Counted from the stretch's first letter, positions 48,336 through 61,813 are shown. The stretch: DNA of 64,000 bases from Mycobacteriales bacterium (GCA_035547515.1 DASZUS010000045.1:97156-161155); one strand, 5' to 3'. Program-made: numbers and translations. The notes: generated by a model not told the origin, from the sequence alone.

Positions 48336-49562
48336 GTGACGGGCCGCGCCGTGCAGAGTGACCAGCTCGAGACCGGTCTCTGGCATCCGCTGGACGCGCT
48401 CGCCCGGTTCTCACACCGCCGGCCGCTGCTGTTCGACATCTCCCTGGCGCTGATCGTCGACGTCGTGGCATCAGGCCAGCTGCTGGTCGGCGGCGAGAGC
48501 CGGTGGTGGGTGTGGCTGCTGGGTCAGTTGCTCGTGCTGCCACTGGTCGCCCGCCGGCGCAACCCGATGGTGGTGTTCGGGCTGCTGGCGGTGATCGCGT
48601 TCGTCCAGTGGCTGACGCACGTCCCGCTCGCCGCCGACGCGGGCCTGCTGGTCGCCCTGTACACGGTTGCCGCGCGCGAGTCGCAGCTGCGGGCGCTGGG
48701 GGCGGCCGGCGTACTCGAGATCGGGGTCGTGCTCGCCTCGGTGCGCTTCGCACCCGCGAGGGACGGCCTGCTCGGGTCGCTGGCGTTCCTGACCGGCATG
48801 GTCTGTGCGGCCTTATTCGGCGGCATCGCGTTGAGCACCCACCGCGCCTACCTGGCGTCGTTGATGGACCGCACCCGCCAACTCGAGCTCGAACGCGACC
48901 AGCAGGCCCAGCTCGCGGCGACCGCCGAACGCACGCGGATCGCCCGCGAGATGCACGACATCGTCGCCCACAGCCTCTCGGTGATGGTCGCGCTCGCGGA
49001 CGGCGCAGGGTTGAGCAACCGCGACGGGTCGCCGGAGTCGACCGAGGCGATGCGGAAGGTCTCCGAGACCGGCCGGGAGGCGCTCGGCGAGATGCGCCGT
49101 CTCCTCGGTGTCTTGCGTGACGGCGCCGGCGCAGTTGGGCGGGCGCCGCAACCGAGCCTGGACCTGCTCCCCGACCTCGTCGATCAGGTCCGGGCGGCGG
49201 GACTGCCGGTCGAGCTCCACACCCTCGGCAAGCCAAGACCGCTTCCCGCGACGGCGGAGGCCACGGCGTACCGGATCGTGCAGGAGGGGTTGACCAACAC
49301 GCTGAAGCACGCCGTGGACCCGACCGCTGTCTCGTTGACCGTGCGCTGGTCCGAGGCTGAGCTCTGCATCGAGATCACTGATGACGGCCGGGCACCGCAG
49401 ACGAGTGCGACCACGGGTCACGGGATCACCGGCATGGCGGAACGAGCGGCGCTGTTCGGCGGGTCGCTGTCCGCGGGCCCGCTCGGGCAGAGCGGATGGC
49501 AGGTCACCGCGGTCTTGCCGCTGCAACGCAGTGACCTCGATCGGTCGGGGTCCAGGCGGTGA
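48336..49562 (+). CDS. Sensor histidine kinase, HisKA_3 (NarL-partner) type, intramembrane-sensing architecture
   Basis: 408 aa. Multiple N-terminal TM helices without a large loop. H-box REMHDIVAHSLS. Confidence 0.85.
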   Translation: MTGRAVQSDQLETGLWHPLDALARFSHRRPLLFDISLALIVDVVASGQLLVGGESRWWVWLLGQLLVLPLVARRRNPMVVFGLLAVIAFVQWLTHVPLAADAGLLVALYTVAARESQLRALGAAGVLEIGVVLASVRFAPARDGLLGSLAFLTGMVCAALFGGIALSTHRAYLASLMDRTRQLELERDQQAQLAATAERTRIAREMHDIVAHSLSVMVALADGAGLSNRDGSPESTEAMRKVSETGREALGEMRRLLGVLRDGAGAVGRAPQPSLDLLPDLVDQVRAAGLPVELHTLGKPRPLPATAEATAYRIVQEGLTNTLKHAVDPTAVSLTVRWSEAELCIEITDDGRAPQTSATTGHGITGMAERAALFGGSLSAGPLGQSGWQVTAVLPLQRSDLDRSGSRR

Positions 49563-50263
49563 GCATCTCCGTGCTCCTGGTCGACGACCAGCCGTTGCTG
49601 CGTACCGGGTTCCGGATGGTCCTTCACGCCACGGACGACATCAAGGTGGTGGGCGAGGCCGCGGATGGGTCGGCGGCGGTGCGAGAGGTCGGCCGGCACC
49701 GCCCGGACGTCGTACTGATGGATGTCCGGATGCCAGGCCTCGACGGCATCGAGGCGACCCGCCAGATCGTGGCGTCAGGCTCGCCGTCGAAGGTGCTGAT
49801 CCTCACGACGTTCGACCTCGACGAGTACGCGTTCGCCGGGCTGCGCGCCGGCGCCAGCGGGTTCCTGCTCAAAGACGTGCCGCCCGGTGAGCTTGTCGCG
49901 GCGATCCGCGCCGTCGCAAACGGTGACGCGGTGGTGTCGCCGCGGATCACCCGGGAGCTTCTCGACCGCTACGCCGCCCGGCTGCCCGACCCTTCGACCG
50001 CCCCGGATCGCGAGGTCCACCCGATCGTCGCCGCGCTGACGGACCGCGAGGTCGAGGTGGTGCTGGCGCTGTCCCGCGGGCTGTCCAACGCGGAGATCGC
50101 TCGAGAGCTCGGCCTTTCGCAGGCGACCGTGAAGACACATGTGACGCGGATCCTGGCGAAGCTGAACCTTCGGGACCGGGTGCAGCTCGTGGTGCTGGCC
50201 TACGAGCAGCGCCTGGTCGAACCTGGCCGACCCGCGCGCGACGACGTACATCGGAAGTCGTAA
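49559..50263 (+). CDS. NarL/LuxR-family response regulator
   Basis: 234 aa. Motifs VLLVDDQPL, DVVLMDVRMPG and LSNAEIARELGLSQATVKTHV. Its GTG start overlaps the kinase stop. Confidence 0.92.
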   Translation: MSISVLLVDDQPLLRTGFRMVLHATDDIKVVGEAADGSAAVREVGRHRPDVVLMDVRMPGLDGIEATRQIVASGSPSKVLILTTFDLDEYAFAGLRAGASGFLLKDVPPGELVAAIRAVANGDAVVSPRITRELLDRYAARLPDPSTAPDREVHPIVAALTDREVEVVLALSRGLSNAEIARELGLSQATVKTHVTRILAKLNLRDRVQLVVLAYEQRLVEPGRPARDDVHRKS

Positions 50264-50366
50264 TCACGACAACCTGCGTGCGACCGACGGACGACCCAGC
50301 GCAAGATCCTCACCCGTAGGGTCGGTCTTTCGAAGACTGCGACGGTCACCTTTCTTTGGAGGTTCG

Positions 50367-50963
50367 TTGACCGGCCACAACAGCCCGGTGAGCTCGGGGA
50401 CTGCGCTCGGCCTCAGCACGATCAACGGGCTGCCCGCTCACGTGCTGCTCGTCCACCTCGTCGTGGTGTTCGTACCGCTGTCCGGCATAGTCCTGATCGT
50501 CGCCGCAGTTCGCGACAGCGCTGCTCGGCGTCTGGGCATCTGGCTTCCGCTGCTTGCGGCGGTGGCGTTCCTGTCCGTGCTCGCGGCGATGAACGCGGGT
50601 GGCTGGCTGCAGAGCCACGTGGCCAACACCGCGCTGGTCCGCAAGCACACTCAGATCGCAGGGCAGCTCTGGCCGTTCTCCGCTGCGGTCCTGCTGCTTG
50701 CGCTGGTGGTCTGGTGGCGGCGCGGGCGCACGCAGAACATGGGGGCCGATGCGCCCGCTGACGCCGCCCGGTCCGGCTGGCGAGCCCTCGCTCCGCTCGA
50801 TGCCGTCGTCCTCGTGGCGTGTGTGGTGATTGCGGCGGGGTCGATCGTCGAGGTGTACCGGATCGGCGACTCCGGCTCACGCGCCGCCTGGCACAACCAC
50901 TTCAGCGCCGCAGCGACCGCAGAGCGGCCAATCGCTCACGCGGCTCTTGGCCGGAATGACTAG
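50367..50963 (+). CDS. DUF2231-like membrane protein
   Basis: 198 aa. TTG start with GGAGG 5 nt upstream. N-terminus GLPAHVLLVHLVVVFVPL is typical of DUF2231. Confidence 0.65.
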   Translation: MTGHNSPVSSGTALGLSTINGLPAHVLLVHLVVVFVPLSGIVLIVAAVRDSAARRLGIWLPLLAAVAFLSVLAAMNAGGWLQSHVANTALVRKHTQIAGQLWPFSAAVLLLALVVWWRRGRTQNMGADAPADAARSGWRALAPLDAVVLVACVVIAAGSIVEVYRIGDSGSRAAWHNHFSAAATAERPIAHAALGRND

Positions 50964-51149: not shown

Positions 51150-54100
51150 ATGGCTCGCTCGGCTCGTCCTGTCTTGCGCGCCTTCCGCGCGTCCGCGGTC
51201 GCGTTGTCGGTGTCGCTACTCACCTACGGGCTGGTCGCGCTGCCTGCGCAGCCTGCGAGCGCTGCGTCTTCGGCGACGGACGTGTCGTCGCGTCCCGACG
51301 CGGTCTCGGCCGCGCTGTCCGCTCGCCTCGAGGGTCATCGGGTGGCGATCACCGATGACGAGACCGACTCATCGACGACCTACGCGAACCCGGACGGCAC
51401 GTTCACGACGGAGACGAGCCAGGGCCCGGTGCGGGTGGCGCAGCCTGGTGGCGGTTTCGCCCCGCTGAACCTGACGCTCACCCAGAACGCGAACGGCTCC
51501 TACTCGCCGACTACCGCGGCGGCGCCGTTCACCCTCGACAACGGCGGCTCGACGACCGCGGCGACGCTGCCGGAGGCATCTGGCCGCTCGGTTGGCGTGG
51601 GCTGGACCTCGAAGCTGCCTGCCCCGACGGTGTCGGGTGGTACCGCGAGCTATGCGATCTCGAGCACCGAGAAGCTCGTCGTCGCCGCGACGTCGGAGGG
51701 CTTCACCGCGGACGTGGTGCTGACCGCGCCGCCGACGTCGTCGAGCTTCACGGTGACGTTGCCGTTGAGCCTGGCGAAGCTGACCGCGACCCAGGCCGCT
51801 AACGGCACGGTGAGCTTGCAGGACGCTGCCGGTGACACGGTCGCCAGTGCGCATCAGTTCGCGATGTGGGACGCCAGCGCCGGCACGACGCCGTTTCCGG
51901 ACCAGGAGACGGCGGTGCCGACCAAGCTCTCCACCTCCGCGAGCGGCGCACCCGAACTGGTGCTGTCCCCGTCGATGAGCTTCCTGGACAGTCCCTCGAC
52001 GCAGTACCCGGTGACGATCGACCCGAGCATCGGATCCCTCGCCCGCACCGGAAGCACGTTCTGGTACACCAACAACACCAGCCCGCAGGCGGGGAACTAC
52101 GAGCTGATCGTCGGCCCGAACACCAGCGGCTCGGTCGCGTACCGGTCGTTCGTGAACTTCAACGCGAACCCGATCATGGCCTCCCACGTCACCAACGCCA
52201 ACCTGAGCCTCTACCAGATCTACGCCGCGTCCTGCTCGGCGCAGTCGATGACCGCCTACGCCTCCTCGGCGGTCGCGAACTCCAGCACCGTGTGGTCCAA
52301 CGCTCCGGGCAAGAACACCAGCTACAGCGACGCGGTGTCTTCCAACACGGCCGGCCCGAGTTGTAGCCCGGCGCAGCCGTATGGGTCGGAGTCGATCCCG
52401 GTCACCAACATCCTCAACGCCTGGAGCAACGGCACGATCGCCGCCAAGGGCATCCAGCTGTGGGCAACCAGTGAGACGAACACCGCCGCAGGCAAGATCT
52501 TCTGCTCAGAGGTCGTCACCGCCGGCACCACCTGCAACAACTCCGCCTATGAGCCGACCCTGTCAGTGACCTATGACGACTACCCGCAGGTCGCTACCCA
52601 CCTTTCGGCCGAGCCGAGCTCGATCGGGTCCACCGGCAAGACGTACACGACGTCTCTGACTCCCACGCTGCAGGCACTCTCCACGGACCCCGACGGCAGC
52701 AGCAACTATGTTGAGTTCCAGGTCCTTCACGACCCGAGCTACCCGAGCGAAGGCACCGGCAGCGTCTGGACTGGCTACTCACCACTCACCCCGCAAGGCG
52801 CCTCTGCATCGATCAATGTGCCATCCGGACAGCTCGTCAACGGTTACCACTACGAGTGGGAAGCCATCGGCTACGTCCAGAACAGCCTCGGCGGCTACGA
52901 CTTCGCCCCCACCTGGTCGACCATGCAGTACCTCGCCGTCGATAGCAACATCCCCCCGACACCCACTGTCAGCTGCACCGCGTTCCCGTTCGGCTCGTGG
53001 ACCAACGCAAGCCCCGCTGGTGCGACCTGCACCGCGTCGGACTCAGCGGTGGATCTGTCCGGCTTCTATTACTCCTTTGACAACCCCGACCCCGAAACGC
53101 CGGTCACTCAGAGTTCCGGGTCCGCCACCATCACGATGCCCTCCGGCGGCAACACGCTCAGCAACGGAATGCACACGCTGTATGTGCAGGCCTACAACAT
53201 CGCCTACAGCCGATCCGCCACGATCACCCAGTACAGTTTCGGGATCGGCGTCGGCGGTTTGAGTTCGCCAAGCAACGGCCAGACCACCCAGCAGGCCGTC
53301 GTGCTCACCACGACCGCTGCGCCCGCCGAGACCGGCGTCACGTTCAGCTACCGCCAAGGCACTACTGGCACCTGGATCACCGTTCCTACCAGCGACGTGA
53401 CGATCCCTGGCACCAGCACCAACCCCACCTGGCCGCAGGCTATAAGCGGTGGGACCTCCACCCCGCTTGACTGGGATGTAGCCCAAACCATTGCCAACGC
53501 AGGCGGCTCCGACGGACCTCTTCAACTAGAAGCATGCTTCAACCACAGTGGCACGCAGGACGGGTGTTCGGGAAGTACCAATCTCAGCCTGGCGCAGACT
53601 GCGTTTGGCGACAGCCAAGCGACTACCAATGTCGGCCCCGGTTCCTTGTCACTCCTCACGGGGGATCTCGACGTACCGGCGACCGACGTCAACGTCAGCA
53701 GCGTCGGTGGTGGACTTTCCCTCGGACGAGACCTCACCACCTTGGCGCCGTCGACCAGCGACACGGGAGCCGACGGAATCTTTGGGCCCGCATGGAGCGC
53801 CGATCTACCTTCGCCGACAGACGGCTACGCGACTGATTCCCTATTCATGGCTCACGATCTCGGGTACGCGACGTTGACAGGTCCCGACGGCACCGTGTTC
53901 GACTACATCACCCCGAGCACGGGCTACCCGTACGTCTTTACCGGCGAGAGCTCAGCTGACGACGGATCTATCCTTACGCAGCCCTCGATTGACGCTGCCA
54001 ACATCACCGAGTCGGACGGGAGCGTTACGAGTTGGACGCGTAGCGCTGTCGGCTCGCCCTGGGAACTTGCGTCGGTGGTGGTAGCAGGGTCCAACAGCAC

Positions 54101-57100
54101 GACTAGCTACACATACAACGGAGCAGGTCAAGTCGTTCAGGTCGTCGCTCCTACCGCGGCGGGCGTGACCTGCACCAGTCCACTCACTACCCGCGGCTGC
54201 CGCACCCTGACGCTGGCGTATGCCACCTCCACCACGGCCAGCGGTACCAGTCCGTCGCAATGGGGCGACTATTACGACTCAGCGAACGGTGTGGGTCGGT
54301 TGAAGACGGTGCAGTTGACCGCCTACGACCCGTCGTCATCGACCATGACTACGGTCGCGGTGGCTGACTACTCATACGACAGCAACGGAATGCTTCGCGG
54401 CGAGTGGGATCCGCGAATCAGCCCGGTTCTTGAAACGACCTACAGCTATGGAGCCGGCGATCGACTTGCTACCGTCACCCCGCCCGGTCTCACCGGAGAC
54501 ACGATCAACTACGACAGCGAGGGTCGGGTAGCGAGTATCCAGCGGGTTGATCCAGTTAATGGCACAGCCACCCAAGCGATCGCCTACACCGTGCCGATTA
54601 CCGGTAGTGGCGCGCCGATTGACATGTCGGCGAGCGCGACAGATTCGTGGGGCCAGACCACCGACCTGCCGTTTACGGCTACCGAGGTTTTCCCACCCGA
54701 CCACGTGCCAGCGACAGGTAGCAACGGCGACTACGCGCCTTCCGCGACTGACTATCCGTACGGTTCAATCAGCTATCTCGATGTCAACGGCTATAGCGTC
54801 GACGCGGCCGCGTTTGGCGCCGACGCATGGCAGGTGAGCGCGACTCAATACAACGGCAACGGCGGCGTCATCTGGCAACTGAGCGCCGACAACCGCGATC
54901 AGGCACTTAGCCCGACCGCCCAGACGGATCCCCTGGTCGCGGCCATGCCGAACTCGGCAGAACGAGCAGACGCTCTCGCCAGTACAAGCCAATACGCGTC
55001 GGACGGATACGACCTAAGCGACACGTACGGGCCAACCCGGCCGACAGTCCTCGACAACGGTGCGTTGGCGGGAGCCGTCGTGGATGCAAGAGACCACATT
55101 CACTACGTGTATAACCAGGGAGCTCCGGGCGGTGGCTATGACCTCGTCACTGAGACGAGTGAGTCTCCGTCATTCGCACAGTCCGGCTCCTCGGTGATGG
55201 CCGACTACGCCCCCGATACCAGGAGCACCATCGCTGGCTACAACCCGGTGGACGGCTCCGGCGACTCGGGGCCGACCAGCGGCTGGACGCTTAGTGAGCC
55301 GACGTCTACTACGACCGTGATGCCCGGTTCGGGCAACAACATCACTACCGAGACCGAATACGACGCGGATGGCAACGTCATCGAGTCGATCATGCCGAAG
55401 GCGACGAGCGCAGGCGTCGACGCATACACGACCGACACCGGGTACTACACAGCCGGCGCGAACGCGCAGTATCCAGCTTGCGCAAATCGCCCCGAGTGGG
55501 CCGGCTTACTGTGCGAGACCGGACCGGCCGTCCAACCGACAAGCGGACCCCCTGTCCCCACAACAACGACGACGTACAACATCTATGACGAACCACTCGT
55601 CGTAACTGCTACATCGGGTACGGGCGGCGCGATGGCAACCAGGACCACAACCTTCACATACGACGCGGCGGGACGAACCCTGACCACAGGAATCACCGAC
55701 TCATCCAGTGACGCGACGAATGTTCCGACGACTACGACGTCTTATGACCCCGGAACCGGGCTTGCCACGACGATGTCGACCTCGGCGGGCACGATCAGTA
55801 CGGGGTATAACTCGCTTGGCGAGGCGACCAGCTACACGGCACCGACAGGCACCGGGACGAACACCACCACGACGACGTACAACATCGACGGCAACGTCTC
55901 TTCGATCAACGACGGCAAGGGCACGACCACGTTCACCTACAACGGCACCGACAGCCTCGGGCGTGCAGAACATCGCGGACTGGTTACATCAGAGTCGACA
56001 GGAGTCGCGAGCGGCGACACGTTCTCCGGCTCGTACGACGCCGACGGGAACCTTACGAACGAGACCTATCCGAACGGCCTCGTAGCCACTACCGGCTATA
56101 ACAACACCGACGAACCGACGAACTTGACCTACGCGATGGGTAGCTCGACATGGGCAACCTTCGCCGATGCCTACAACGAATTCGGTCAGGTTGTTGATCA
56201 ATCGAGTCCAGAGTCATCCCAACAGATTCAATACGACCAGGACGGCCGCATCAGCCAGGTAGCCGACAACGGCGACGGCACGTGCGTGACCCGCACCTAC
56301 TCATACGACGCCGACTCCAATCGGATCGGGTACACGGTGTACCCCGCCACAAACACAAACCAGTGCTCAACGACAACCACACCGACCGCGAACGAGACGT
56401 CTACTCACGACCAAGCAGATCGGATCACCAACGCCGGCTACACGTACGACAACATGGGCCGGACCACGACGATCCCGGCCGTCGACACTTACGACACCAA
56501 CCCGAGCCCAACGAACTTGACCCTGACGTATTTCGCTGACGACACCGTCCACACGGAGAGTCAGGACGGGGTCACCGACACCTTCACGCTCGACCCGGGC
56601 GGACGCGTTCTCAGTGAGACCAATAGTGGCACTTCCGCCACGGTCACCGACGTCTACAGCGACAGCAGCGACTCACCGGCATGGACGTCTAGTAGCGGCG
56701 GCGGATGGAGTCGGTTCATTCCTGATTTGGCAGGCAACCTGAGCGAGATCGAGACCTCAACAGGCACCGCCAACGCAACGCTCCAACTTGTCAACCTCCA
56801 CGGCGACGTCGTTGCGACCGCTCCGGACTCGAGTGCCGACACCGGCTACAGCAACTACAGCGAGGACACGGAGTTTGGCGCGCCACGTGCGGCGAACGCC
56901 ACCTCGTCCACGACCTATGCGTGGCTTGGGGGTAAGGAGCGGTCGAGTAATACTTTGGGCGGCCTTGTCGTGATGGGAGCCCGGGCCTACTCCCCGACTA
57001 CTGGCAGGTTCCTCACTACCGACCCTATCCGTGGAGCCAGCGCAAATTCCTACGACTACTGCGACCAAGATCCGGTGAATGTCTTTGACATCTCCGGAAC

Positions 57101-57509
57101 AAGTCCAAGTCAGGCATCCGTCAGTGCGCCTACGCCCCTTTGGGTGAGCTTCAACGGCGTCATCGCCTGCAAGCCTCACGAGAACAGCGCCATCCTCGAG
57201 GGCACGGCAAAGATCAATCCCGCGAATTACGCTTGGTACTTCGGTGGGTGGAAGCCATTCCACGTTGTCGACCACGGTGACGTCGAGACCTGGACCACCG
57301 TCCAGAACTCCTATTCGCGTGAAGACATCTATTGCGGCTGTCGAGACGGAAAACCGAGCGAGTGGGGAGTCGGCTACGACCCCGTTCACAGGTTCCACAA
57401 GATCTACTACGACTGCTTCAATCTCTCGTGCGTCTGGTTCGGCGACGCCACGCTGCCCTGGGAAGAAGGGCCTATGGCATGGCACCCGGACTACGACGGA
57501 GATGCCTAG
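51150..57509 (+). CDS. Sec-signal RHS/YD-repeat polymorphic toxin (2119 aa)
   Basis: GGAGG RBS. Signal peptide ending PASA|AS (about residue 38). DNRLRE-like region (about residues 300-477). More than 20 YD repeats (YTYNGAGQV, YSYDSNGML, INYDSEGRV, TEYDADGNV, FTYDAAGRT, IQYDQDGRI, YTYDNMGRT...). RHS core end ARAYSPTTGRFLTTDPIRG...YDYCDQDPVNVFDISG. A 136-aa C-terminal extension follows. Confidence 0.92.
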   Translation: MARSARPVLRAFRASAVALSVSLLTYGLVALPAQPASAASSATDVSSRPDAVSAALSARLEGHRVAITDDETDSSTTYANPDGTFTTETSQGPVRVAQPGGGFAPLNLTLTQNANGSYSPTTAAAPFTLDNGGSTTAATLPEASGRSVGVGWTSKLPAPTVSGGTASYAISSTEKLVVAATSEGFTADVVLTAPPTSSSFTVTLPLSLAKLTATQAANGTVSLQDAAGDTVASAHQFAMWDASAGTTPFPDQETAVPTKLSTSASGAPELVLSPSMSFLDSPSTQYPVTIDPSIGSLARTGSTFWYTNNTSPQAGNYELIVGPNTSGSVAYRSFVNFNANPIMASHVTNANLSLYQIYAASCSAQSMTAYASSAVANSSTVWSNAPGKNTSYSDAVSSNTAGPSCSPAQPYGSESIPVTNILNAWSNGTIAAKGIQLWATSETNTAAGKIFCSEVVTAGTTCNNSAYEPTLSVTYDDYPQVATHLSAEPSSIGSTGKTYTTSLTPTLQALSTDPDGSSNYVEFQVLHDPSYPSEGTGSVWTGYSPLTPQGASASINVPSGQLVNGYHYEWEAIGYVQNSLGGYDFAPTWSTMQYLAVDSNIPPTPTVSCTAFPFGSWTNASPAGATCTASDSAVDLSGFYYSFDNPDPETPVTQSSGSATITMPSGGNTLSNGMHTLYVQAYNIAYSRSATITQYSFGIGVGGLSSPSNGQTTQQAVVLTTTAAPAETGVTFSYRQGTTGTWITVPTSDVTIPGTSTNPTWPQAISGGTSTPLDWDVAQTIANAGGSDGPLQLEACFNHSGTQDGCSGSTNLSLAQTAFGDSQATTNVGPGSLSLLTGDLDVPATDVNVSSVGGGLSLGRDLTTLAPSTSDTGADGIFGPAWSADLPSPTDGYATDSLFMAHDLGYATLTGPDGTVFDYITPSTGYPYVFTGESSADDGSILTQPSIDAANITESDGSVTSWTRSAVGSPWELASVVVAGSNSTTSYTYNGAGQVVQVVAPTAAGVTCTSPLTTRGCRTLTLAYATSTTASGTSPSQWGDYYDSANGVGRLKTVQLTAYDPSSSTMTTVAVADYSYDSNGMLRGEWDPRISPVLETTYSYGAGDRLATVTPPGLTGDTINYDSEGRVASIQRVDPVNGTATQAIAYTVPITGSGAPIDMSASATDSWGQTTDLPFTATEVFPPDHVPATGSNGDYAPSATDYPYGSISYLDVNGYSVDAAAFGADAWQVSATQYNGNGGVIWQLSADNRDQALSPTAQTDPLVAAMPNSAERADALASTSQYASDGYDLSDTYGPTRPTVLDNGALAGAVVDARDHIHYVYNQGAPGGGYDLVTETSESPSFAQSGSSVMADYAPDTRSTIAGYNPVDGSGDSGPTSGWTLSEPTSTTTVMPGSGNNITTETEYDADGNVIESIMPKATSAGVDAYTTDTGYYTAGANAQYPACANRPEWAGLLCETGPAVQPTSGPPVPTTTTTYNIYDEPLVVTATSGTGGAMATRTTTFTYDAAGRTLTTGITDSSSDATNVPTTTTSYDPGTGLATTMSTSAGTISTGYNSLGEATSYTAPTGTGTNTTTTTYNIDGNVSSINDGKGTTTFTYNGTDSLGRAEHRGLVTSESTGVASGDTFSGSYDADGNLTNETYPNGLVATTGYNNTDEPTNLTYAMGSSTWATFADAYNEFGQVVDQSSPESSQQIQYDQDGRISQVADNGDGTCVTRTYSYDADSNRIGYTVYPATNTNQCSTTTTPTANETSTHDQADRITNAGYTYDNMGRTTTIPAVDTYDTNPSPTNLTLTYFADDTVHTESQDGVTDTFTLDPGGRVLSETNSGTSATVTDVYSDSSDSPAWTSSSGGGWSRFIPDLAGNLSEIETSTGTANATLQLVNLHGDVVATAPDSSADTGYSNYSEDTEFGAPRAANATSSTTYAWLGGKERSSNTLGGLVVMGARAYSPTTGRFLTTDPIRGASANSYDYCDQDPVNVFDISGTSPSQASVSAPTPLWVSFNGVIACKPHENSAILEGTAKINPANYAWYFGGWKPFHVVDHGDVETWTTVQNSYSREDIYCGCRDGKPSEWGVGYDPVHRFHKIYYDCFNLSCVWFGDATLPWEEGPMAWHPDYDGDA
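57099..57509 (+). other. C-terminal variable (toxin) domain of the RHS protein, residues 1984-2119, family unassigned
   Basis: Begins right after the DPxN..D.SG core boundary. Has 5 Cys (IACKPH, YCGCRDG, YYDCFNLSC) and is rich in Trp/Tyr/His. No motif I can match to nuclease, deaminase, ART or peptidase toxin families. Confidence 0.6.
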
Positions 57510-57703
57510 CCATGGCACACACCTCAGGACACCGAATACTTGACAGTAAGGAGGCGACGCAGGGCAATGCCGGCACCGAACGTGACGAGGCCTTGGCAGT
57601 CACCGCTTCCAGCGGCGCGCTTCCCAGGAGCGCGGCGACAACCTACTCGATGCGGGGTAGCTCAGAACCTGACCCTAAGGCCAGATTCAGATTGGAGGAC
57701 ATC

Positions 57704-57877
57704 ATGAAGGTCTGGAAAGACCAATGGGTTCCCGGCGACCCGTTGCCAGCACGCGGGCTGCTCCGGGCAGCGGAGAATCTCGACGGTAGAGGAAACCGCG
57801 GTAAAGCCATCGCATGGGTCGCGCTAATCTCGATCCTTGGCGGCATCGCCTTCGTGGCTGTTCAGATCACGCGATGA
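57704..57877 (+). CDS. Small single-pass membrane protein (immunity-module candidate)
   Basis: 57 aa (MKVWKDQWVPGDP...AIAWVALISILGGIAFVAVQITR), with GGAGG 5 nt upstream. An in-frame longer version could start at the ATG at 57512, 2 nt after the RHS stop. Confidence 0.45.
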   Translation: MKVWKDQWVPGDPLPARGLLRAAENLDGRGNRGKAIAWVALISILGGIAFVAVQITR

Positions 57878-58266
57878 GACCGTCAGTCTCTCACGATCTT
57901 CCGAGCCGTGGTGCGGCCTTGGCCGCGCTCTGTCTGTTCGTGGTGCTGATCAGCGCCTGCGGGAGTGGTACACCCTCTACGTCAAGCCAGTTGCGACCGA
58001 TGGCTACGAGCTCGGCCCGGGGCCAAACGCCCGCCGATATCGCCTGCGATGACTTCGCTCGTTTTGTTGATAGCCATTCTGCTGCGGATTTGGCCGCAGC
58101 AGTCAGCACATCTCGCAGCATCCGAGGCGCGGGTCGCGCCGCTACAAATGTGAGCGCCGACATCGCTACCTACGTAGAACAGAAGCGGGCGCACGCCAAG
58201 GAGTTTCTTGCAGCGACGACGGCCGCAATTGAGCACGACTGCGCGAGCCTTCCACACAGGGTTTGA
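57874..58266 (+). CDS. Small lipoprotein (immunity candidate)
   Basis: 130 aa. Its ATG overlaps the upstream TGA (ATGA). Lipobox LFVVLISAC. The mature part of about 100 aa is helical-looking and has two further Cys. Confidence 0.6.
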   Translation: MRPSVSHDLPSRGAALAALCLFVVLISACGSGTPSTSSQLRPMATSSARGQTPADIACDDFARFVDSHSAADLAAAVSTSRSIRGAGRAATNVSADIATYVEQKRAHAKEFLAATTAAIEHDCASLPHRV

Positions 58267-58365
58267 GTGGCCACCCTACTAAGGAGGGTCGGGGTCGGGA
58301 GGGACTGCCCCGTGAAGCGCCCCAGGTTTGATGCCGCCTCCTTGTGAGTCCAGGAGGATGGTGTC

Positions 58366-58520
58366 GTGCCGAAGAAGATTGATCCGAAGGTAACGCAGCG
58401 TTGCGTTCAGCAGATCCTCGAGCACGTGCAGGAGCACCGAACCCGACCGCGGCGGCGGAGGTCAGCGCGGGGCTCTGGCAGGCGTGCGCAGACAGAGCCA
58501 GGCTCGGCACCGGTCGCGAC
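58366..58520 (+). mobile_element. Degenerate remnant of an IS3-family transposase orfA (N-terminal HTH region only, frameshifted)
   Basis: A GTG start with an AGGAGG RBS gives MPKKIDPKVTQRCVQQILEHVQEH. The next frame continues PNPTAAAEVSAGL...LGTGRD. This parallels the MPKKIDPEV..AVRLV.EH..EYPSLTAA..AVA.QLGVGRES pattern of IS3 OrfA proteins (from memory). No orfB or inverted repeats found. Confidence 0.35.
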
Positions 58521-58545
58521 CGGCATGAACCACGCCTCGCGGCGC

Positions 58546-59001
58546 TCAGGCCGGGCTTGGTGCCGGCCGAGCTTCCTGGATCTGCTCGAGCATGGCGCGG
58601 ACCTTCGATGGTCTGTACGACCCTGTAGGCATCGCCCGCACCACCTCTCCCGAGTTCAAGATGAGCGCCACGCACGTCGCGCGGCCGGTGACGTTGCCGC
58701 TGTCCACGATGGTCAGATCGCGGACGCTCTCCCAACTGAAGACCTTCGTCGATCCGATATTTCGAATGGTGACCGTCCTCGGGCCGACCTCGACGCCAAG
58801 TCGGAGGGAACGGAGCGCTGCGGCGGCAAACGCGACAGCCACAAGTCCATCCCCGACTTGGTCGCCGTACGTCGGATCGGAATGAGCCCCGCGAACGGCG
58901 GCGCCCAGCGCGAACGCCGCGGCGAGCAGGCCAGTAGCGGAAAACACGCCATAGGTCTGCGCGCGGTTAGTGATCAGCACGTCGCCCGGACCGAGCCGCA
59001 C
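58546..59001 (-). CDS. Membrane protein with bacterial PH-like domain (paralogue 1)
   Basis: 151 aa. Two N-terminal TM helices, then VGPRTVTIRNIGSTKVFSWESVRDLTIV...VALILNSGEVVRA. Same architecture as the neighbouring gene. Confidence 0.55.
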   Translation of the reverse strand: MRLGPGDVLITNRAQTYGVFSATGLLAAAFALGAAVRGAHSDPTYGDQVGDGLVAVAFAAAALRSLRLGVEVGPRTVTIRNIGSTKVFSWESVRDLTIVDSGNVTGRATCVALILNSGEVVRAMPTGSYRPSKVRAMLEQIQEARPAPSPA

Positions 59002-59028
59002 CCTGCGAAGGTGAGCTGCGAGTGGCGT

Positions 59029-59499
59029 TCACACCGCCTCCATCCGACGCGAGCTGATCAGTTCGTTGAGCGCAGCGATGAGCTCGTTGTCCTGCGCCAT
59101 GCGCTTGGCGCCCGCGAATGAGGCGGTCGCGAGACCTTCGAGACGGATCTTCTCGCCCGAGGCGAGGAGCAAGGTGCCCGCCCGTCCACGAGATAGGGTG
59201 ATGCTTTCCACTTCAGACCACCTGAAGGTCCTCACATCGAAGTAGTTTCGCACTTTCATCCCGGCGTCCGAGACGAAGACGCCGGACCGCGCGCCCGCAG
59301 CGAAGATCACCGCAACAGGAACGACCGTGGCTGCGATGACAATGCGGACGCCTACTGGGTACTGCGCATCGCTGATCGGCGCCGCCCCGATGAGAAGCGT
59401 GACTGCGGCAGCCGTCAGCCCACAGCGCCGGGCAAACCTCGTCTGGATGAGCTCACGATCCAACGTGGCACGCGAAGCGCGACGTCGGCGCGGCCTCAC
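59029..59499 (-). CDS. Membrane protein with bacterial PH-like domain (paralogue 2)
   Basis: Start set at the GTG at 59499. TM helices, then VSDAGMKVRNYFDVRTFRWSEVESITLS...LLLASGEKIRLEG. The upstream part of the 220-aa ORF looks non-coding. Confidence 0.55.
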   Translation of the reverse strand: MRPRRRRASRATLDRELIQTRFARRCGLTAAAVTLLIGAAPISDAQYPVGVRIVIAATVVPVAVIFAAGARSGVFVSDAGMKVRNYFDVRTFRWSEVESITLSRGRAGTLLLASGEKIRLEGLATASFAGAKRMAQDNELIAALNELISSRRMEAV

Positions 59500-59909
59500 G
59501 AGGCGACCCCGGTTCCTTTGAAAGCCCAGTCGCCACCAGCGCCAAGTCTGACCTGATGCTCGCGGTCGGACACAACCCGGCGCCGCGTCGCGGTCATCCC
59601 GGTCGGATGATGGGAGATCACCACCGCCCCCGGCGTCACGCTGCAAACAAGACTGAGATAACGACGCGCATGCGGACCTCCCCCAACCCATATCCCGGCG
59701 CCCCTACCGGCTGTCGGCACCGGCAGTTCAGGCTGGCGATCCTGGCACGGCCAAAGCCGCGCGTCAGGACACTCTGATAGGCCAGATGGATGTTGGGGTC
59801 GGGGCGGCCCTCGGAATAGGCCTGTCTGTCATGGTGGACATACTTGCCTTCTGACGCAGCGCGGGCACGTCCTCCTCGTCAACAGCTACAGACTTGGGAG
59901 GTGTCTTCC

Positions 59910-60581
<672 letters not shown>

Positions 60582-60664
60582 TTGAGCGGCGACGAGTCTA
60601 GCCGCCGTCATCGCCGACTGGCTGTGCTCTATGACAGTCAGGCGGCGATCGGGCCTGCGAGGGG

Positions 60665-61813
60665 TCAGTCGTTGACCGCCCACCGGCGGTCCAGGATCGC
60701 CTCGAGGTCGTCGTCTGACTGCAGCTCGCTCGCCGGCTCGAGCGGCGGCAGCAGCCGGTCGCGGGGCGACTCGTAGATCGGACGCGACGGCGCAGCGGGC
60801 TTGGTGGCGTAGGTCGGCTTGGGCACCGGGACTGGCTCCCACGGCTTGCCGCCGACCGCGAGCACCTCAGCCGCGGCGTGAGCCGCAGCGCGGGCAGCCC
60901 GCTCGCTGCTGTACTCGCGCGCCAGCGCGGCCTCCTCTTCGGTCTCGAGCTCGACCCGCGGCCGACTGGCGGGCTTCGCAGCGGCGGCGACCTCCGCCGC
61001 GGGCTCCGGCTCCGGCTCCGGTTCTGCCTCGAACAGCTCCTGGTCGAAGACGCTGTCGCGGGCCGCGGCCCGTCCAAGCGGCTCAGCAACCGCGGTGGCG
61101 AACATCGACTCCGCCTCGTCCCAGGGCTCGGTCTGGTCGAACACCTCGTCGGCAACCGCGGCAGCGCTCGAGCTGCGCGGCATGGCGACCGTACGCACCG
61201 ACGACGGAACCGGCCCGCCGTGGACGGTGATGCCCTCTTCCCACCCCGGCTCCGGCCGGTCCCAGCTCGTCTCGCGCTCGAGCTCCGCGAGCTCGCGCGT
61301 GTCGCGGCGCCGGGCGAGCGCTCGCCGACGCGAGGCCGCGGCCCGCAACGCCAGGCGACGCAAGTGCATGCAGTAGCTGAGCGCCGCGAGGTCCAGGACG
61401 ACCTGCACTGCCCACAGCACGACCCCGCCAACAGCGAGGGCGGCCACGAAGGTCACCAGCACCGTGACGGCGAGGCCGACGAGAAGGTTCCGCCGGCGCC
61501 TCGCCATGGTCCGCTTGCGGCGAGCCGCGATCGCCTCGGGCGCGGAGGCGCCGGAGACGTGCACCAGGACGTCCGCCGGGGCCTGGCGCCTCGCGGCGTA
61601 CGCCTCGCGCTGGCGCGCCGGGCCTGCGCCGTACGACGACGTCTTCACATTGCGCGGCGTGGGCCGGGCGTCGTGTCCGGACAGCGTGCTCATCGCGGTC
61701 GAGAACTTGTCGACCGAGCGGGACTCCTCGACCTCGTCGTGGCGGCGCAGCCACATGGGGACGAGGACCACGGCCCACATCAGGATCAGGCCAAGGATGA
61801 TTACTGGGCTCAT
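60665..61813 (-). CDS. Conserved actinobacterial membrane protein (Rv0996-like by position)
   Basis: 382 aa. N-terminal TM MSPVIILGLILMWAVVLVPMW, a second TM pair, and an Ala/Glu/Pro-rich C-terminus. Confidence 0.7.
   Translation of the reverse strand: MSPVIILGLILMWAVVLVPMWLRRHDEVEESRSVDKFSTAMSTLSGHDARPTPRNVKTSSYGAGPARQREAYAARRQAPADVLVHVSGASAPEAIAARRKRTMARRRRNLLVGLAVTVLVTFVAALAVGGVVLWAVQVVLDLAALSYCMHLRRLALRAAASRRRALARRRDTRELAELERETSWDRPEPGWEEGITVHGGPVPSSVRTVAMPRSSSAAAVADEVFDQTEPWDEAESMFATAVAEPLGRAAARDSVFDQELFEAEPEPEPEPAAEVAAAAKPASRPRVELETEEEAALAREYSSERAARAAAHAAAEVLAVGGKPWEPVPVPKPTYATKPAAPSRPIYESPRDRLLPPLEPASELQSDDDLEAILDRRWAVND

Follow-up and report, generated by a model that had tools for sequence, protein, structure and literature searches.

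The stretch analysed here, a window of 64,000 nucleotides from a Mycobacteriales bacterium (GCA_035547515.1, DASZUS010000045.1:97156-161155), contains an RHS/YD-repeat polymorphic toxin gene whose product ends in a 136-residue C-terminal tip of no known family. The tip is probably the variable cargo of a WapA-like RHS polymorphic toxin exported via Sec. It would act on the envelope of competing actinobacteria and would be neutralised by orf121, a 121-residue protein encoded directly downstream, by the predicted lipoprotein encoded next to it, or by both. A sequence-only reading of the same DNA, generated by a model, had held Cys-rich and aromatic-rich tips to be more typical of toxins that fold outside the cytoplasm; the signal peptide of the carrier, the tips of relatives that bear named domains, the parity of the cysteine counts and the nature of the downstream genes agree circumstantially with folding or action there. 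The features that define the system are as follows, with positions counted from the first letter of the window.

51150-57509, plus strand: RHS/YD-repeat polymorphic toxin gene, an open reading frame (ORF) of 2119 codons encoding 2119 residues
51138-51143, plus strand: Shine-Dalgarno-like GGAGGA, read from the sequence; the ATG at 51150 follows after 6 nucleotides
51150-51263, plus strand: predicted Sec-type signal peptide (MARSARPVLRAFRASAVALSVSLLTYGLVALPAQPASA / AS), read from the translation
56874-57098, plus strand: RHS-associated core, residues 1909-1983, ending in ...DQDPVNVFDISG (TIGR03696, E = 3.8e-13)
57099-57506, plus strand: 136-residue variable tip, consisting of the linker TSPSQASVSAPTP and a ~123-residue Cys/Trp/His-rich domain (translation after DISG)
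57512-57877, plus strand: orf121, 121 residues with a single predicted C-terminal transmembrane helix (tail-anchored), first candidate immunity gene (gene callers, hydropathy)
57874-58266, plus strand: 130-residue predicted lipoprotein (MRPSVSHDLPSRGAALAALCLFVVLIS-A-C...), second candidate immunity gene (Logan gene call, lipobox)

The RHS carrier and its polymorphic tip

The RHS-associated core of the carrier closes with the residues DISG (1980-1983 of 2119). The translation of 57099-57506, which follows them and ends at a TAG stop codon (57507-57509), is identical to the 136-residue sequence quoted in the sequence-only reading. The assignment of that sequence as an RHS C-terminal tip also stands, as the RHS repeats and the TIGR03696 core stop at DISG and relatives diverge there. 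In addition to the core, the carrier matches PF05593 RHS_repeat in 4 stretches (E = 6.6e-13, Pfam) and TIGR01643 (NCBIfam), and PF25023 TEN_YD-shell is precomputed on the record for the same protein. PAAR, VgrG, LXG and WXG domains were not matched in the carrier (Pfam, NCBIfam). The end of the core, DQDPVNVFDISG / DISG, has the DPxxxxDxxG form of RHS-associated cores and is a putative autoproteolytic boundary.

Four Logan assemblies (SRR12170512-15) contain the same protein, as does a public Mycobacteriales bacterium metagenome-assembled genome (MAG; HVW80800.1). The latter record is annotated as 2055 residues, with a start 64 codons 3' of the ATG at 51150, and the signal peptide is thereby lost. 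The 2119-residue start with the signal peptide is favoured over the 2055-residue start because GGAGGA precedes the ATG at 51150. The signal peptide, read by eye from the translation, comprises a basic n-region, a hydrophobic h-region and an A-S-A cleavage motif. The carrier is presumably exported via Sec and cleaved after DISG.

About 90 full-length actinobacterial RHS relatives of the carrier were collected (~2000-2200 residues, P0011-P0089). Their hosts are Microbispora, Actinomadura, Kitasatospora, Streptomyces, Frankia and MAGs, and many are named 'DNRLRE domain-containing protein'. The relatives align over 91-97% of the length at 30-77% identity and have the core-end motif in common; the motif aligns in ~80 of them, and past D-x-x-G the divergence is complete. 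The nearest two are P0011, 77% identical over 94% of the query, and P0012, 76% identical over 92%. The stretch of the query that they leave uncovered is the tip, and both carry unrelated tips past the same motif. This polymorphism among relatives makes the carrier a polymorphic toxin by definition. The tips of the relatives resemble the studied tip in length (~100-160 residues, and mostly within 85-180); many bear a pair of cysteines a few residues past the cleavage motif, at their N-terminal end, and many hold glycine-rich hydrophobic stretches.

In this actinobacterial RHS family, approximately nine tips out of ten lack a Pfam domain. Where domains were recognised, they are Phage_lysozyme2 in the tips of P0013 (1.6e-24) and P0054 (1.2e-13), prokaryotic phospholipase A2 in that of P0030 (3.9e-16) and DUF6973 in that of P0020 (1.8e-14), the last also matching P0088 below threshold only (0.014). 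The Phage_lysozyme2 and phospholipase A2 tips are envelope-acting enzymes, and none of the tips on related RHS proteins of the same architecture contains a cytoplasm-acting Pfam domain. Of 74 related tips, 52 have an even number of cysteines, 10 an odd number and 12 none, and this bias towards even counts fits disulfide-bonded exported proteins. Taken across the family, the sequences of the related tips suggest disulfide bonding and membrane activity.

The G+C content at third codon positions (GC3) shows that the tip of the window is real translated sequence. In the RHS frame, GC3 is 0.75 for the tip and 0.73-0.75 across the preceding 4 kb of the gene, and straight after the RHS stop codon another frame becomes the one with high GC3. 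A non-coding read-through origin of the tip was ruled out by the same frame analysis. The tip contains five cysteines (C24, C79-G-C81 and C106-x4-C111), eight tryptophans and six histidines; the sequence-only reading had the first two counts right and gave seven histidines. Compared with the RHS body, the tip shows an enrichment of ~5-fold in Cys (binomial P = 0.004), ~4-fold in Trp (P = 0.0006) and ~5-fold in His (P = 0.0009). This richness, noted in the same reading, is typical of related RHS tips and not exceptional. Among the 74 related tips, 12 are richer in Cys than the studied tip, 22 in Trp and 19 in His. The Cys/Trp/His richness is a family trait, by which the tip stands only in the upper quartile of the set.

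The P0016 tip

One of 84 related tips is a probable homologue of the studied tip, judging from pairwise alignment. It terminates P0016 (MBV9871349.1), a protein of a Frankiaceae MAG whose RHS body is 49% identical to the carrier. The two tips align with a Smith-Waterman score of 72, where shuffles average 33 (z = 6.6); the runner-up among the 84 tips reaches z = 3.6. The score was attained by 5 of 20000 shuffles, corresponding to p ~2.5e-4, or ~0.02 after 84 comparisons. The P0016 tip is also 136 residues long, it contains exactly five cysteines that are colinear with those of the studied tip, and the two sequences are 27% identical. The residues kept in the alignment are N19, C24, N40-P41, G60-D61, C79-G-C81, W89, H97 and H100, and in the C-terminal part C106, C111, W121 and Y132-D133-G134. 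Thus, CGC, HxxH and Cx4C are common to both tips. HVVDH, which the sequence-only reading had offered as a target for mutagenesis, is not conserved in P0016. A hidden Markov model (HMM) built from the two tips detected no third member among the 84 related tips (best E = 0.41).

The arrangement C-x-C...H-x2-H...C-x4-C with an additional lone cysteine allows either two disulfides and a free, possibly catalytic cysteine, or one to two metal sites. The tip would probably be all-beta and held by two disulfides or by a metal site involving C79-G-C81 and C106-x4-C111, and C24, D61, H97 and H100 would be the best candidates for functional residues. Structure prediction, one of the checks named in the sequence-only reading, was carried out with AlphaFold2, but the predicted local distance difference test (pLDDT) score was 33 for the single sequence and 36 for the two-sequence alignment; both models are unusable and afforded no fold comparison.

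Downstream genes and genomic setting

The orf121 gene begins 2 nucleotides past the RHS stop codon. It is called by two pipelines, is annotated as HVW80801.1 and has a GC3 of 0.67-0.73 in its own frame, a moderate coding signal. A search for homologues of orf121 found only the protein itself. An internal ATG at 57704 (plus strand, to 57877), with GGAGGA at 57694-57699, provides an alternative start from which a 57-residue single-pass membrane protein would be produced. The ATG of the lipoprotein gene overlaps the orf121 stop codon (ATGA). The leader of the lipoprotein, ...ALCLFVVLIS-A-C, combines a hydrophobic segment with the lipobox ISAC. This 130-residue protein has no family match in Pfam, NCBIfam or PHROGs and forms a single-member cluster. 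Either orf121 or the lipoprotein, or both, may be the cognate immunity protein of the tip, and both genes lie where an immunity gene is expected.

The first gene past the RHS stop codon was read in the loci of nine individually named relatives, P0011-P0017, P0030 and P0051. It encodes a lipoprotein in four of them, namely P0016 (LAGC, overlapping the stop codon), P0013, which carries a lysozyme tip (VVGC), P0012 (VAGC) and P0014 (LGGC). A protein with multiple transmembrane helices comes first downstream of P0011, P0030, the relative with the phospholipase A2 tip, and P0051, and a soluble protein downstream of P0015 and P0017, in the latter case followed by a protein with two transmembrane helices. 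A lipoprotein or membrane protein is therefore encoded first in 7 of the 9 loci, as it is in the window, and such exported or membrane-bound products fit toxins active at the membrane or outside it. Lipoprotein genes directly 3' of four related RHS genes are located in L007 (9064-9508), L010 (7114-8133), L011 (8766-9821) and L015 (8745-9152); those of L007, L011 and L015 are absent from the listed gene calls and were found only by reading ORFs.

In Actinomycetota, RHS proteins exported via Sec seem to be specialised for cargo that acts on the envelope, because their tips include lysozyme, phospholipase A2 and Gly-zipper-like examples, their cysteine counts are mostly even, and their candidate immunity genes encode lipoproteins or membrane proteins. 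Under this scheme, the precursor would be exported through Sec, the YD shell would enclose the tip and the RHS-associated core would cut past ...DISG. Contact with a competitor would then release the tip, which would act on the envelope from outside, with no entry into the cytoplasm. The producer would be protected by the co-transcribed downstream genes, through the tail-anchored orf121, the lipoprotein or both. A narrower version is put forward only tentatively. In it, the studied tip and the P0016 tip would be the first members of a family of small beta-fold toxins, either rich in disulfides or metal-binding, with an undescribed activity against the actinobacterial, possibly mycolic-acid-containing, envelope; they would be delivered by a Sec-exported RHS shell that needs no specialised secretion system and neutralised outside the cytoplasm by a lipoprotein.

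The RHS gene and ~3 kb downstream of it (51700-60700 of the window) have a G+C content of 60-65%, while that of the flanks is 70-75%, which suggests a horizontally acquired island. In relatives, the RHS gene adjoins a phage-type integrase and a TrwC relaxase (L008, L009, L013 and L015) or sits between IS21 copies (L011), and on account of these neighbours the RHS cassette is considered mobile. Inside the low-GC island, two adjacent ORFs on the minus strand (58546-59001 and 59029-59691) each contain a bacterial PH domain (bPH_6, E ~1e-4). Directly 5' of the RHS gene, 48336-50963 on the plus strand encodes a HisKA_3 histidine kinase, a NarL/LuxR-type response regulator and a DUF2231 membrane protein. 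This trio has the native high G+C content and also precedes the RHS gene in the Logan contigs.

Alternative assignments and comparison with known systems

Several observations weigh against an envelope-acting cargo. When cysteines are masked, the comparison with the P0016 tip yields p = 0.085, so that the likeness rests mainly on the Cys columns. The lipoprotein ORF of the window has a weak coding signal (GC3 0.64), and the lipoprotein of the P0016 locus has no sequence similarity to either orf121 or the window lipoprotein. The cysteine count of the tip, five, is odd, unlike that of most family tips. The CxC...HxxH...Cx4C pattern could equally be the zinc site of a cytoplasm-acting enzyme. Finally, basic residues precede the C-terminal transmembrane helix of orf121 and point to an N-in topology; the soluble part of the protein appears to face the cytoplasm, a better fit to an intracellular target.

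The last three of these points bear on an unlikely alternative, in which the tip would be a zinc-binding enzyme acting in the cytoplasm, for example a small nuclease or a toxin that modifies nucleic acids or nucleotides. CGC, HxxH and Cx4C would then be metal ligands, orf121 the immunity protein and the lipoprotein an unrelated product. The conserved C-x-C...H-x2-H...C-x4-C arrangement is compatible with zinc sites, the odd cysteine count breaks the even-Cys rule of the family, and a gene 2 nucleotides past the RHS stop codon occupies the classic immunity position. The sole weak match of the tip in Pfam is also a zinc finger, Ogr_Delta, although its E-value of 0.17 is not significant. However, no nuclease, deaminase or ADP-ribosyltransferase (ART) profile fits the tip, and none of the related tips of the same architecture has a cytoplasm-acting Pfam domain. 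The P0016 RHS gene is directly followed by a lipoprotein gene and not by one for a cytoplasmic protein. Moreover, just a 13-residue linker joins the core to the tip, with no evident translocation domain.

The profile searches agree with the sequence-only reading that the tip has no recognisable catalytic signature. The tip gave nothing in NCBIfam, a best E of 0.24 in PHROGs, and nothing at E <= 10 among PDB sequences, searched with the single sequence or with the two-sequence profile. There was no significant profile match to HNH/AHH/GHH/SHH nucleases, deaminases, ART, HExxH peptidases, papain-like enzymes or the Pfam Ntox/Tox families. Individual motifs were considered and rejected. The HNH reading has the wrong spacing, and N108 and H129 are not kept in the P0016 tip; the M23/LAS peptidase (HxxxD...HxH) and M15 (ExWH) readings also fail on spacing. 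The colicin M signature is DxYDx5HR. The corresponding V-G-Y-D-P-V-H-R of the tip, read from the sequence, lacks the first Asp and has a spacing of 2 instead of 5. An internal duplication, 'W-x-F-G...H..D.GD', is unsupported by the P0016 alignment.

A non-toxic tip is considered quite improbable. It would serve as a module for binding or adhesion, or be an inactive, decayed cargo that recombination left behind, and the downstream ORFs would be unrelated small genes. Consistent with such a reading, neither a catalytic signature nor a family was detected for the tip, homologues of the two downstream ORFs are lacking, and the locus lies in a lower-GC island beside apparent remnants. Nonetheless, GC3 and ORF integrity of the tip equal those of the RHS body, and the identical gene is found in four sequencing runs and one MAG. 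The P0016 homologue keeps all five cysteines and both histidines, which points to selection. As is well established (see PMC12704120), the position past the RHS core is that of the effector in all RHS proteins studied, and this also counts against a non-toxic tip.

Searches of larger collections with the tip were likewise unproductive. A word-indexed search of 5.8 billion proteins and a tblastn search against plasmids returned no match. Pattern scans of 185,579 reference genomes and of JGI metagenomes yielded a single short chance match each; one comprised 15 residues in a Dysgonomonas MAG, and the other was the exact string 'REDIYCGC' closing an unrelated ORF. An exhaustive HMMER (phmmer) scan of 1.84 billion cluster representatives retrieved six proteins (P0001-P0006, E = 5e-16 to 9e-4). 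The six are large surface proteins of Bacteroidota-like and archaeal type, each with 5-13 tandem units of ~72-75 residues, and Y-x-G-G-W-K/R-x-F is common to their repeat units and the tip. The full-sequence E-values of these six proteins are misleading, for unrelated Pfam models as well, because the near-identical tandem copies are summed, and the six matches were rejected as repeat-summing artefacts. The unit consensus is …VVFQTVN..V.L.DS....L.....VKYY.GGW..FG.T..G...KELLP..Y.FRMTY…..DK.QDI…, and no Pfam family covers the unit, save for one P0003 unit that matches CarboxypepD_reg (PF13620). The proposal to which the shared motif, the six E-values and the single PF13620 match could lead, that the tip is one ~72-residue CarboxypepD_reg-like beta-sandwich repeat unit of these surface proteins, is essentially excluded: the scores of single repeats lie only between -3.5 and 14 bits, the tip obtains 13.1 bits (27 residues) from an HMM of 43 units when the best of 5000 tip shuffles, a single one, reaches 12.8, and the same proteins gather spurious Pfam matches with zero significant stretches.

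The assignment of the tip as envelope-acting cargo of an exported RHS protein has parallels among characterised systems. In TelC/TipC of Streptococcus intermedius and in colicin M/Cmi, the toxin acts outside the membrane and the immunity protein is membrane-anchored or a lipoprotein. The same logic is proposed for the tip and its downstream genes, with no sequence relation to either pair.

The closest counterparts in architecture are the WapA proteins of Bacillus subtilis and Streptococcus suis (WapA-CT1/CT3/CT7). Like these, the carrier opens with a predicted Sec signal and a long surface-associated N-terminal region, continues into a YD/RHS shell and an RHS-associated core, and closes with a variable tip; a small gene follows it directly. 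In S. suis WapA, a Sec signal and a DNRLRE domain accompany the RHS shell, and two of the tips are toxic only when directed to the periplasm (PMC12704120). In contrast, the carrier comes from an actinobacterial (Mycobacteriales) lineage, and its tip has no relation to the nuclease and tRNase tips of that study (PMC12704120). The carrier also differs from WapA in that it has no HMM match to LysM or DUF6531 (Pfam, NCBIfam) and none to DNRLRE (NCBIfam) or CBM96 (PF24517) at E <= 0.1-1, and neither a sortase nor a SecF-like partner was seen.

Bacterial teneurin-like YD-shell proteins offer a second comparison. One C-terminal domain of this group is toxic only with a signal peptide, and nearly all of the genes adjoin an immunity gene (PMC13018210). 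The carrier resembles these proteins in its TEN_YD-shell (PF25023), in the variable C-terminal toxin that the shell would encapsulate and in the adjacent immunity gene, here a candidate; it differs from them in having no FN-plug or NHL matches and an N-terminal region of another type.

The nearest kin are the actinobacterial 'DNRLRE domain-containing' RHS proteins, among which relatives 30-45% identical to the carrier contain PF24517 or bear the DNRLRE name. If these proteins do specialise in envelope-acting cargo, the related tips would constitute a reservoir of proteins that kill actinobacteria, including the relatives of mycobacteria, from outside, and the studied tip, with its conserved Cys/His pattern, would be a tractable example. 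The carrier is homologous to these proteins over 91-97% of the length, but each of their tips differs from the studied tip and only that of P0016 resembles it. The tip is a new cargo domain within a well-known polymorphic toxin system, in which orphan tips are the norm.

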